DNA of 64,000 nt from assembly GCA_965602015.1 (NCBI GenBank), contig OZ271918.1, forward strand, positions 192,001 through 256,000, given 5' to 3'. Positions 44,320-47,303 of the stretch are shown piece after piece. Below the pieces are notes generated by a model. That model was not told the origin of the DNA. It searched no databases and saw nothing but the letters and a program-made list of their open reading frames with translations. Within the stretch, counting starts at the first letter, position 1; every line of letters starts with the position of its first letter. Made by a program: the position numbers and the translations under genes. This DNA is from Salinispira sp. (GTDB taxonomy: Bacteria > Spirochaetota > Spirochaetia > DSM-27196 > Salinispiraceae).

Positions 44320-44892
44320 CTAACTGCTGGCCTGGACCGTAAGAAGCAGGCTGTACACCCCGCCTTCCCCGAGAAATGAAAAATCGACCACAACTCTTCC
44401 GTCAGGTATTCGCCACTGGGCTTCCTTCACCTTGTAACCCCGGTGCGCCTTTTCGGCCGGATTGATGAACTCATTATGACCCTGATCTTCCCTCCAGGGC
44501 GTACCGTAGAGCACGCTGTACTTGTTGATAAAATCATTGGCAGCCTGATACGTCCGTTCGAACAGATCTGCAGACACATCGGTCTGGTGAGCGTTGAACA
44601 TAAACCAGCTGAGTCGGTCTCCGTGAAATGAATATACCCAGCGGCCGGGAATGCCGAACTCCCTGCTTTGGCGGATGAACTGATCCCCCTCATTGACCCG
44701 GGCCTGGGGGTACAGAGCACGAAAATCATCAATACTCATTCCCAGCCGTATTCCGCGTTCCGCATCGGACGAGGAGGAATACCCTTGGGATATTTCCTGT
44801 TCTGAAGGATTGCAGGAAAGCAGCGCAAAACTAATTGCCGCAATAAGGGCGGACCTCATGATGAATCTCAGCGGGAGCGTAAACCTGGTCAT
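44320..44892 (-). CDS. Hypothetical lipoprotein
   Basis: Hydrophobic stretch ending in lipobox LLS-C. Confidence 0.6.
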   Translation of the reverse strand: MTRFTLPLRFIMRSALIAAISFALLSCNPSEQEISQGYSSSSDAERGIRLGMSIDDFRALYPQARVNEGDQFIRQSREFGIPGRWVYSFHGDRLSWFMFNAHQTDVSADLFERTYQAANDFINKYSVLYGTPWREDQGHNEFINPAEKAHRGYKVKEAQWRIPDGRVVVDFSFLGEGGVYSLLLTVQASS

Positions 44893-45045
44893 ACGGGTGT
44901 GTATCCTGAAGTGAATTGGGTATGATTTTATATCAGAAAATCACCACCGCTGTCAATTTAATATGAAGTGATGGTATGAAAGCGGTGCCTCCCCCGAGAT
45001 CCTGCCAGTCAGGGTCTATATTAAATACCGGAGGAGGACAACCAA

Positions 45046-46098
45046 ATGAGTAGTATTATTATATCCCTCGACAGCCATAAACGGTATACCGTGGCTGCAA
45101 TTGAGGACGAAAAAGGAAGGAAATCCTCACAGCGCATAGAACATTCTCACGGGTGTATTCGTGATTTTCTCCAACAATTTGAGCCGGGACAGGAAGTCGC
45201 ACTTGAAACAATCGGAAGTTGGTACTGGATTGTGGATGAGATTGAGGAGGCCGGCATGAACCCCTTGCTGGTACATGCCGGTAAGTCAAAATTGATGATG
45301 GCCATGTTTAACAAAACTGACAAACTCGATGCTGAAGGTCTCAATAAACTTCAAAAAGCAGGCACACTGCCTACTGTGTGGATTCCACCAGGAGAATTGC
45401 GTGATAAACGAGAACTCTATCGAACCCGGATGCAGTTCGTTCAGGAGTTGATACGTGAAAAGAACCAAATTCATGCCGGGTTCGAGAAATATGGGTTTCG
45501 ATTCAATGATGTGAGCGATCTGTTCGGAAAAGCAGGTACAGAAGCCATGAAGAAGGTAATGCCAAAACTCCCCGAGCATACCCGCACCATGATGAAACTC
45601 AAGCTCGATAATCTCGCGTTTATTAAGCAATCTATCACCGACTGCGAACAACGAATGCATGAAGCGTTTGATGAAAATGCTGAAATGAAGTTGGTGAAAT
45701 CCATTCCCGGGATCGGATTTATTCTCAGCGCAGTCATTGTGCATGAAATTGGAGACATACATCGCTTTAAGACCGCTGAACATTTTGCATCATACTGTGG
45801 TACAACGCCGCGCGTTCACTCGAGCGGAGGTAAAACTCATTATGGTCGAACATCGAAAGCATGTAATCGATACTTGAAGTGGGCACTTACTGAAGCAGCT
45901 AATGTAACCTGTCTTAATCAAAGAAATTGGGCGAACCGACATACGGTAAAACTCTACAAGAGAGTTCGTACTAAACGTAATCATAAGGTTGCAATAATCG
46001 CCGTGGCACGGCACTTAGCAGAAGCAATATTTTGGATATTGCAGAAAGAACAGCATTACAAAGATCCTGCATTAGCGGGTTTGTCCAGACAGGGGTAA
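45046..46098 (+). CDS. IS110-family (IS1111-type) transposase/recombinase
   Basis: DEDD domain (LDSHK, ETIG, KTDKLDA), SIPGIG, HSSGG catalytic Ser; GGAGG RBS. Confidence 0.93.
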   Translation: MSSIIISLDSHKRYTVAAIEDEKGRKSSQRIEHSHGCIRDFLQQFEPGQEVALETIGSWYWIVDEIEEAGMNPLLVHAGKSKLMMAMFNKTDKLDAEGLNKLQKAGTLPTVWIPPGELRDKRELYRTRMQFVQELIREKNQIHAGFEKYGFRFNDVSDLFGKAGTEAMKKVMPKLPEHTRTMMKLKLDNLAFIKQSITDCEQRMHEAFDENAEMKLVKSIPGIGFILSAVIVHEIGDIHRFKTAEHFASYCGTTPRVHSSGGKTHYGRTSKACNRYLKWALTEAANVTCLNQRNWANRHTVKLYKRVRTKRNHKVAIIAVARHLAEAIFWILQKEQHYKDPALAGLSRQG

Positions 46099-46200
46099 GC
46101 GCGTTTTTGGGGCTACAGCGCGAATACGAGGCTGTGCAAAGTGATTGCGACACCCCTGGAAGGACATTTTCATGCCACGTGGATGGCGGAGATATGACTC
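46090..46200 (+). ncRNA. Predicted bridge RNA/seekRNA of the IS1111-type element
   Basis: Nested stems with an internal loop whose two strands match the target; a second pair of segments matches the element ends (see findings). Confidence 0.7.
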
Positions 46201-46273
46201 GGACAAAACCGATTTGCAGAATTTTTGTAATAGAACATTGAAAACTCTTGCGGGGAGGCACCGCTTTCAGATA

Positions 46274-46416
46274 TGCCCCCAAAACAGCTGATATTGTGCG
46301 CTAAGTATCAATCCTGGCTGGAAATGCAAATGAAGTGACAAAAAACCTTGAGATTAGTCCCTTACTTCTTGTTCTTAAGGCATTTGCATCAATTCCATCA
46401 GCTGTTTTGGGGGCAC
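46274..46416. repeat. ~144-bp REPIN/MITE-like element (repeat copies 7 and 8), abutting the IS right end
   Basis: TGCCCCCAAAACAGCTGAT...ATCAGCTGTTTTGGGGGCAC|TA. Confidence 0.8.
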
Positions 46417-46445
46417 TACCAATTTGACAAAGGCCGGGGAGGCAA

Positions 46446-47303
46446 TCAAAGCAGCTCCCGCAGCTTACCGATGCTCAGGGGGGCACAGCCTTCGTAGTGA
46501 TTATTAACATTGATAATCGTTTCAATACCCCGTTCTTCGAGCATGCGGGCAGCCTTGGCTATGAGCATCAGGTCGTCATCCATGGGGCGGATTATTCTTC
46601 CCCATTTTTTTTCGCTGAGCCGGTCCATTTCTTTGCGTTCGGGCCCGTGCAGACGAAGCACCACGGGGGCCTTTGTGCCAATATCTGCAATAAAGCTCTC
46701 AATGGTTTTGTATGCCGGAGGCAGGTAATACCCATGGATCAGTACCGGTGAAATCGAGTATCGGTCGAGCAGACGGAAAAATCCGCCGCTGAAATACTGG
46801 GGATTGCGGATTTCGACGCCGAACCAGGGTTCATTTTCCGAACGGATATCTTCGGGGAGTGAGGAGAAAAAATCCTCCAGAAGATTCATAAAGCTGTCGG
46901 CGCCGGTCATCTTCCGCTTATTCAAATACTCAAACTGGAACATCAACACCCGGGTTTTGGGAATTATCGGAGAGAGTCTTCGCAACACCTCCTCCAACAC
47001 ACTCCGGGATAAAAAGTCCGGGTTGATTCTCAGGGGACCGCCGGATCCCCGATAGTGGGTGAGGCTCAGGCTGTCCGGGAGCTTAATGGTGAAGCGGAAA
47101 TCCTCGCCCACGCTTGCCGAGTAATCCAGCGCCGTTGCGCTGTCGGGAAGCTTTGTTCCCCCGTCAAATAGGCTCCAGAACCACTGATCTATTTCAACGG
47201 TGGAAAAAAGACGGGAGTACTCGGAAAGATAGTTTTCGCAGTCCGGGGAATATACGATGTCAGTCCATTCAGGATACTTCCAGCTGCAGGTTCCAATACG
47301 CAT
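46446..47303 (-). CDS. DUF72 domain protein (YecE-like)
   Basis: RIGTCSWKY..W, TVEID, F.FTIK.P..L...H, VEIRN, RLHG, NNHYEG.A. Confidence 0.88.
   Translation of the reverse strand: MRIGTCSWKYPEWTDIVYSPDCENYLSEYSRLFSTVEIDQWFWSLFDGGTKLPDSATALDYSASVGEDFRFTIKLPDSLSLTHYRGSGGPLRINPDFLSRSVLEEVLRRLSPIIPKTRVLMFQFEYLNKRKMTGADSFMNLLEDFFSSLPEDIRSENEPWFGVEIRNPQYFSGGFFRLLDRYSISPVLIHGYYLPPAYKTIESFIADIGTKAPVVLRLHGPERKEMDRLSEKKWGRIIRPMDDDLMLIAKAARMLEERGIETIINVNNHYEGCAPLSIGKLRELL

Follow-up and report, generated by a model that had tools for sequence, protein, structure and literature searches.

The stretch of DNA analyzed here, called the window below, comprises 64,000 nt of contig OZ271918.1 of Salinispira sp. 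(assembly GCA_965602015.1, positions 192,001 to 256,000). It carries an IS1111-type insertion sequence (IS) that interrupts the tip of another mobile element, a miniature inverted-repeat transposable element (MITE), and that is predicted to encode a guide RNA for its own recombinase (Table 1). The recombinase gene, tnp, is flanked by non-coding ends of 75 nt on the left (44971-45045) and 177 nt on the right (46099-46275), so that the longer of the two lies downstream of the gene, and the predicted guide RNA begins just ahead of it, within the last codons of the reading frame. By convention the TG common to the two junctions is assigned to the right end; the element boundary is ambiguous by 0-2 nt. 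The genome contains ten copies at 99-100% identity, with 11 matches to the element that include ten left ends and ten right ends, and the RNA region is likewise found ten times, identical in eight cases and with one substitution each in the other two (at 46181 and 46162). One copy (G000:C1:1706985-1709287; L010, L011) is interrupted, the part corresponding to query positions ~70-388 being replaced by ~1.3 kb of other DNA.

Table 1. The insertion sequence, its predicted guide RNA and its target, in window coordinates
Feature	Position	Strand	Remarks
IS1111-type insertion sequence	44971..46275	+	1305 bp; from comparison of occupied and empty sites
Recombinase gene	45046..46098	+	350 aa; DEDD/RuvC-like N-domain and Tnp C-domain; stop codon 46096-98
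Left subterminal inverted repeat TGAAAGCGGTGCCTCCCC	44977..44994	+	preceded by 6-nt extension ATGGTA (44971-76)
Right subterminal inverted repeat	46252..46269	+	followed by extension GATA and core TG (46270-75)
Left target remnant AAG and core TG	44966..44970	+	outer tip of the terminal repeat of the interrupted MITE
Target MITE	46274..46415		~140 bp; terminal inverted repeats TGCCCCCAAAACAGCTGAT at 46274-92 and 46397-415
Stem-loop 1, target-binding loop	46090..46158	+	minimum free energy (MFE) fold
Stem-loop 1, outer stem	46090-96 / 46152-58	+	CAGGGGT / ACCCCTG
Stem-loop 1, inner stem	46100-03 / 46146-49	+	CGCG / TGCG
Stem-loop 1, apical hairpin	46114-19 / 46131-36	+	TACAGC / GCTGTG
5' target guide UUUUUGGGGC	46104..46113	+	DNA letters TTTTTGGGGC
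3' target guide (A)AAG, core UG, AU	46138..46145	+	sense of left target, core and first 2 nt of left end; pairs with bottom strand
5' donor guide ACAUUUUCA	46164..46172	+	corrected register; complementary to core and left end TGATGGTAT (44969-77)
Hairpin 2 (GCCA/UGGC)	46174..46187	+	between the two donor-guide strands; GCCA 46174-77 is the 5' arm
3' donor guide AGAUA, core UG, AC	46190..46198	+	sense of right end and core
Hairpin 3 (UCGG/CCGA)	46199..46212	+	MFE fold; downstream of donor loop

The recombinase matches the Pfam families PF01548 (E 3.7e-10) and PF02371 (E 9.1e-27) and scores 226.8 bits against the NCBIfam model NF033542, "IS110 family RNA-guided transposase" (cutoff 140), while its C-terminal domain matches the solved IS621 transposase 8wt6 (E 1.7e-11). 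The motif G--P----S/T-G is present as GTTPRVHSSG at residues 252-261, and ..TPRVHSSG.. aligns with ..TPRRYESG.. of IS621 so that SSG lies opposite ESG. When aligned with 19 homologues (53-60% identity), D9, E54, D92, D95, P255 and G261 are invariant and S260 is nearly so. The catalytic residues of IS621 are reported as D11, E60, D102, D105 and S241 (PMC11208160/PMC11208158; excerpts of these two papers are the source wherever they are cited here), and by analogy D9, E54, D92 and D95 would form the DEDD site and S260 would be the catalytic serine. The protein has thousands of relatives in the databases, the nearest of them at most 61% identical.

Members of the IS1111 group have subterminal inverted repeats of ~11-13 bp or more; those of the present element are 18 bp long and 100% complementary, and the TGAAAGCG motif of the left one is kept in relatives. 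Beyond the perfect repeats the terminal extensions measure 6+6, 7+5 or 8+4 nt, according to where TG is assigned, and the extension rule quoted for IS1111, 7 (or 6) bp on the left and 3 bp on the right, itself varies with how the repeat ends are drawn. Insertion is specific for site and orientation and proceeds without target duplication, which is also characteristic of the group. Judged by its gene, its ends and its insertion sites, the element is an intact IS1111-type member of the IS110 family.

When occupied and empty sites are compared, insertion maps to AAGTG^CCCC[C/G]AAAA, within a target that reads AAGTGCCCC[C/G]AAAACAGCTGAT when written out. Empty sites read ..AGTG|CCCC.., the left junction reads AG-TG-ATGG and the right junction reads GATA-TG-CCCC. 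Because TG alone is common to both junctions, we take it to be a 2-nt core, with no duplication of the target, and the 126 empty TG+CCCCNAAAA sites in the genome bear this absence of duplication out. AGTG precedes the left end in all ten copies, the DNA further out being variable, and CCCC[C/G]AAAA adjoins the right end in the same orientation in eight of ten, with both variants of the target in use (4 C, 4 G). The right flank is CCCC[C/G]AAAACAGCTGAT in seven copies and CCCCGAAAAC followed by other DNA in one, and the remaining two read CCCCTAAGC.. and GCATATAAC.., respectively. AG stands before TG in 65 of the 126 empty sites (AC in 28), yet in 10/10 insertions; nine of these are independent, two sharing a duplicated flank, and on these counts the chance of AG in all nine is 0.52^9, or about 0.003. 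This preference fits the AG of the 3' target guide.

The two aberrant right flanks deserve a description of their own. That beginning CCCCTAAGC.. belongs to the interrupted copy and is a partial match to the usual target. The other arises from a perfect tandem duplication (G000:C1:3399413-3402534) of a 1560-bp unit, made up of 255 bp of left flank and the 1305-bp element, in which the IS copies differ at 0 positions. At its novel junction the right end of the element is joined to an upstream site that shares the TG core only (..ATTCC-TG-GCATATAAC), which looks like the product of recombination at a bare core matching neither target guide.

The target is the terminal repeat of a second transposon family. 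The interrupted MITE has a 19-nt perfect terminal inverted repeat, and the 18-mer at the repeat end, TGCCCC[C/G]AAAACAGCTGAT, occurs 129 times in the genome (at most 2 substitutions), mostly as inverted pairs that lie either ~138 bp apart (MITEs) or ~1243 bp apart. The ~1243-bp full-length form carries an open reading frame (ORF) of 377 aa, for which NCBIfam gives an IS1-family match below threshold only (35.2 bits, cutoff 100) and a Pfam search gives no match. With this reserve, the host appears to be a distant IS1-like element together with its miniature copies. Homing to one position and in one orientation in the terminal repeat of another transposon was reportedly described in a 2003 paper for IS4321/IS5075; the host family differs from the distant IS1-like element and MITEs seen here. 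The IS1111 of Coxiella burnetii offers a second parallel, being found almost only inside QMITE2 copies, from which it splits off 10-20 bp (PMC5896051, Wachter et al. 2018, in excerpt). As that excerpt has it, both elements insert into a MITE family, with the difference that the Coxiella element uses a repetitive extragenic palindrome (REP)-like sequence within the MITE, whereas the insertion described here lies 2-5 bp from the tip of the terminal repeat.

Folding of 46090-46158 with ViennaRNA yields stem-loop 1 at -27.1 kcal/mol (z -2.47, equalled by 4/200 shuffles), and the 124 nt of 46090-46213 add two more hairpins (z -2.58, equalled by 5/200). The first of these folds reproduces exactly the stems described in an earlier reading of this DNA from its letters alone (the sequence-only reading), which had proposed an RNA with guides for both target and donor; when 44800-46500 was read again, all the strings it cited were in place. 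A terminator-like hairpin at 46079-46100, followed by a T-run, shares bases with the stop codon and with stem 1 (5' arm) and competes with the guide-RNA fold.

The guide strands of this copy can be read directly against its flanks and ends. The 5' strand of loop 1, TTTTTGGGGC (46104-13), is the reverse complement of the right flank GCCCCCAAAA (46275-84) at 9/10 positions, as had been proposed, although this flank is not arbitrary DNA but the terminal inverted repeat of the other transposon family. The 3' strand AAGTGAT (46139-45) is identical to 44966-72; what had been described simply as the left junction is a composite of AAG from the left target, the TG core and 2 nt that match the start of the left end. 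In the donor-binding loop 2, AGATATG (46190-96) is identical to 46269-75. We assessed these matches with 20000 dinucleotide shuffles of the 153-nt non-coding stretch, among which 490 contained a 10-mer pairing at 9/10 or better with the right flank, 180 contained AAGTGAT and 160 contained AGATATG; all three occurred together in a single shuffle.

Relatives of the element provided a further comparison. One genome per species was scanned, yielding 80 loci with protein identities of 45-56%. Both repeat anchors lay at least 30 nt from the locus end in 42 of these, the rest having no anchor, a contig edge or an incomplete ORF or flank, and the 34 with TG at both junctions were used with the window, giving 35 sequences. 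The eight loci dropped (L017, L023, L053, L061, L062, L075, L077 and L078) were mis-anchored, carried an extension longer by 1 nt, were degraded at the right end or had a CG core (L077, L062), and those that were readable agree with the model. A common layout is found in 35/35 sequences: on the left the flank is followed by TG-AT-NN-TA and TGAAAGCG.., and on the right ..CGCTTTCA is followed by GA(G/T)A-TG or TA(C/G)A-TG and then the flank. The flanks themselves differ among the 35 elements.

The RNA scaffold is conserved across this set. The consensus fold, obtained from a MAFFT alignment (A2) and extended to 27 pairs in five helices, is paired in 88.7% of cells, compared with 34-40% after the partners have been shifted by 1-3 columns. 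Both sides have changed in a compensatory manner at 21 of the 27 pairs, and 0/500 shuffles reached the observed value on any of five measures, which bears out the fold by the covariance check that the sequence-only reading had named for it. Compensatory pairs make up 9/9 of helix 1 and 5/6 of the apical hairpin. Hairpin 2 has four pairs, with 94.3% of cells paired and 3/4 compensatory (GCCA/UGGC in the window, GCCG/CGGC in relatives), and hairpin 3 is the weakest helix, with 72% of cells paired and two compensatory pairs.

For the guides, positions were fixed relative to the scaffold and each strand was scored against the DNA of its own element (own) and that of the others (cross), with 20000 permutations of the element labels. 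The 5' strand of loop 1 scores 5.71 against its own right flank (top strand, 7 non-core nt) and 3.46 across elements, and the 3' strand scores 3.91 against its own left flank (sense, 5 nt) and 1.30 across, 0/20000 permutations reaching the observed value in either case. The target loops therefore covary with the targets in homologues, as had been anticipated. A position-free best-match search of guides against flanks over the whole non-coding regions was too noisy to use (own 7.8/10, cross 7.5).

The donor loop follows the ends of the element in the same manner. Its 3' strand scores 3.89 against the sense of the own right end (4 nt) and 3.06 across (0/20000 permutations), and the four bases ahead of ATG match the right end of the same element in 34/35 sequences, including the variants GATTTG, GAATTG, TACATG and TAGATG. 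For the 5' strand, the sequence-only reading had chosen TTTCATGCCA (46168-77), which does pair with the left end TGGTATGAAA (44972-81) at 9/10 positions plus one G-T, but which shows no clear covariation in relatives: this register was rejected with own 6.86/10 and cross 6.75 over left-end positions 4-13 (1539/20000 permutations), and own 1.91 and cross 1.78 at the variable positions (385/20000). A conserved contact of UCAU with ATGA may still exist in that register, as these bases never vary. A register shifted towards the 5' side (register A) gives own 3.86 and cross 3.17 of 6 over left-end positions 4-9, and own 2.43 and cross 1.76 at the variable left-end positions, with 0/20000 permutations in both tests. 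A register scan shows that left-end position 5 pairs best with RNA position -4 (own 0.89, cross 0.52) and position 6 with RNA position -5 (own 0.77, cross 0.49), counted from the A of a conserved UCA, and in register A this UCA pairs with the core TG and the following A, paralleling the terminal CA found on the 5' target strand of most relatives. Since GCCA is an arm of hairpin 2 and register A covaries, TTTCATGCCA is not the donor guide. Three of the four guide segments originally put forward thus track their own flanks or ends in the 34 relatives, and the fourth was mis-registered.

The core also varies in step with the RNA. In the CG-core relatives L077 and L062 both 3' strands have CG where UG would otherwise stand, so that the core itself covaries, and on this comparison of sequences it is naturally reprogrammed in these two elements. 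Both come from metagenome-assembled genomes (MAGs), and in L062 the 5 nt TGAAA are duplicated where the left repeat starts. Beside the core, the AU of the 3' target strand equals left-end positions 3-4 in 29/35 elements, and where left-end position 3 is G, as in a single element, the 3' target strand likewise has G. In the 3' donor strand the first post-core base is the same as the base that opens the right target in 23/35 (cross 0.32, 0/20000 permutations).

We consider it very probable that 46090-46213 encodes the bridge/seek RNA of this intact IS1111-type element, predicted to guide the recombinase into AAGTG^CCCC[C/G]AAAA at the tip of the transposon repeat. As far as sequence can tell, the earlier proposal of an intact element with a 3' non-coding guide-RNA scaffold and a readable specificity holds. 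Several observations nevertheless weigh against this interpretation. Permuting labels ignores the relatedness of the elements, so the significance of the 0/20000 results is inflated, most of all in the donor tests, as there is little variation among the ends. In the 5' target guide the final bases are C-U, rather than the C-A of most relatives, leaving the core T unpaired, and against half of the occupied targets the guide is mismatched (U:C). The donor-loop base after the core is A, which agrees with the left end of the element itself and not with the target (C), a configuration reported to hinder strand exchange in IS621. The 5' donor guide of this copy is weak, pairing at 7/9 positions with two wobbles, a level reached by 19977/20000 shuffles. 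Immediately upstream of the RNA, the + strand showed no sigma-70-like promoter. Over the whole region the fold only modestly beats shuffles (z -1.1 for 196 nt, -2.6 for 124 nt), and Rfam 15 returned 0 matches over 44800-46500 at E up to 1, which shows only that no family in Rfam 15 matches.

The last two points, with the terminator-like hairpin called at 46079-46100, also speak for the view that the complementarities arose by chance or composition and that the region is simply the 3' untranslated end of the recombinase gene and its terminator. This we regard as extremely improbable: the three matches coincide in one of the 20000 shuffles, the guides follow differing targets in the 34 relatives, and the stems change in a compensatory manner, and covariation of guides and stems effectively refutes it. 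Another explanation concerns the donor loop alone, namely that only stem-loop 1 is a guide, as in a short seekRNA, and that 46164-46198 repeats the right end at the level of DNA or provides sites for protein binding, the ends of the element being recognized through the subterminal repeats. For ISEc11, an 82-nt RNA alone supported transposition, and did so better than a 154-nt form (PMC11187229); a short RNA with the first loop being sufficient there, a guiding role of the second loop is not established in the IS1111 group, and this too counts against the interpretation favored here. The chance-level pairing of the 5' donor guide in this copy and the little variation among ends, which leaves few independent changes in the donor tests, point the same way. 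Set against them, the 3' donor strand mirrors the right end through five or more end variants and also in the CG-core elements, fixed RNA positions complement the variable left-end positions 5 and 6, hairpin 2 shows compensatory changes between the donor strands, and Durrant et al. predicted donor loops in IS1111-group RNAs (PMC11208160). A guide confined to stem-loop 1 is therefore unlikely, and we retain the RNA with two guide-bearing loops.

In this two-loop RNA, built on the conserved scaffold, the 5' strand of loop 1 would form base pairs with the target's top strand and the 3' strand (AAG-UG-AU) carries the sense of the left half, the core TG and two left-end bases; in loop 2 the 5' strand ACAUUUUCA is complementary to core and left end and the 3' strand (AGAUA-UG) carries the sense of right end and core. 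By analogy with ISEc11 and IS621, the element would excise in circular form, its joined ends providing the donor site and probably a promoter; the RNA would be held by a tetramer of the recombinase, its two loops would base-pair around the shared TG with target and donor on both strands, and the DEDD and Ser active sites would exchange strands without duplicating the target. A script that joined the ends found TTGCGG, an 18-nt spacer and TATGAT, with the -10 hexamer spanning the junction, although at 8/12 positions this is a weak match to the consensus. As no promoter-like site is present on the + strand near the RNA, it is likely processed from the tnp transcript. The sequencing runs listed for the organism comprise four rows of one study, none of them marked as RNA. 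We infer from the sequence that the guide RNA is expressed and the element active.

The mechanism was described in 2024, and the present element is a fresh example of it rather than a new mechanism. In the IS1111 seekRNAs of ISEc11, ISKpn4, ISPa11 and ISPst6, the RNA is encoded downstream of tnp, the top-strand match lies 5' of the bottom-strand match, and the two overlap (PMC11187229, Siddiquee et al. 2024). The guide order seen here fits these RNAs, and the element shares with theirs an RNA just downstream of tnp, subterminal inverted repeats, joined ends that give promoter-like -35/-10 hexamers and the absence of target duplication. It differs in its protein, which appears only distantly related (nearest database relatives at most 61% identical), in its target, the tip of a transposon repeat, and in its extensions (6+6 or 8+4 against the quoted 7+3); unlike those elements, it is known from its sequence alone.

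The relationship to IS621 is of a different kind. In IS621 each loop is described as pairing on the left through its 5' strand with the bottom DNA strand and on the right through its 3' strand with the top one, around a CT core, and for 93% of IS1111 elements the same paper predicts bridge RNAs in the right end (PMC11208160, Durrant et al. 2024). IS621 also carries handshake guides (PMC11208160; PMC11208158, Hiraizumi et al. 2024), and in these accounts pairing of such post-core positions with cognate DNA blocked or hindered strand exchange. Going by the same excerpts, the present RNA resembles that of IS621 in having target and donor internal loops with one strand per DNA strand and a 2-nt core within the pairings, and two bases by the core on one strand of its target loop match non-cognate DNA in the manner of a handshake guide; as noted above, the recombinases also match in their C-terminal domains. 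The RNA differs in lying in the right end and not the left, in the reversed order of its loop strands, of which the 5' strand pairs with the top strand, in a core that reads TG on the tnp strand, in the long subterminal repeats of the element and in a donor-loop post-core base that mismatches the target. Read on the strand opposite tnp, its layout is that of IS621, handshake positions included, on the sequences compared.

It may be, though we stop somewhat short of expecting it, that this holds for the whole subfamily, that is for thousands of relatives with a TG or CG core. Such elements would have a true two-loop bridge RNA of IS621 design acting on the opposite DNA strand, with handshake bases on the guides that pair with the bottom strand; the present element would be a parasite of a parasite, splitting and probably disabling the repeats of IS1-like elements and MITEs. 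By analogy with IS621 the first strand exchange would then take place on the strand antisense to the recombinase gene. The value of the locus lies in a fully readable natural guide RNA from IS1111, the less-studied branch of the bridge recombinases, whose target is known from a single genome with 126 sites empty and 8 occupied, and in 34 relatives with naturally reprogrammed guides as material for the rules of guide length, core choice (TG/CG), wobble and handshake. It also documents one mobile element homing into the ends of another, which leaves the known mechanism unchanged.

In the relative L065, from a Rokubacteria MAG, the right flank is the inverted complement of the left flank, ..cacgggttcgaatcccgt, and the relative L059, also from a Rokubacteria MAG, has the same left flank. 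This flank resembles a tRNA T-arm region, and the target of the two elements may be a tRNA-like sequence or a palindrome.

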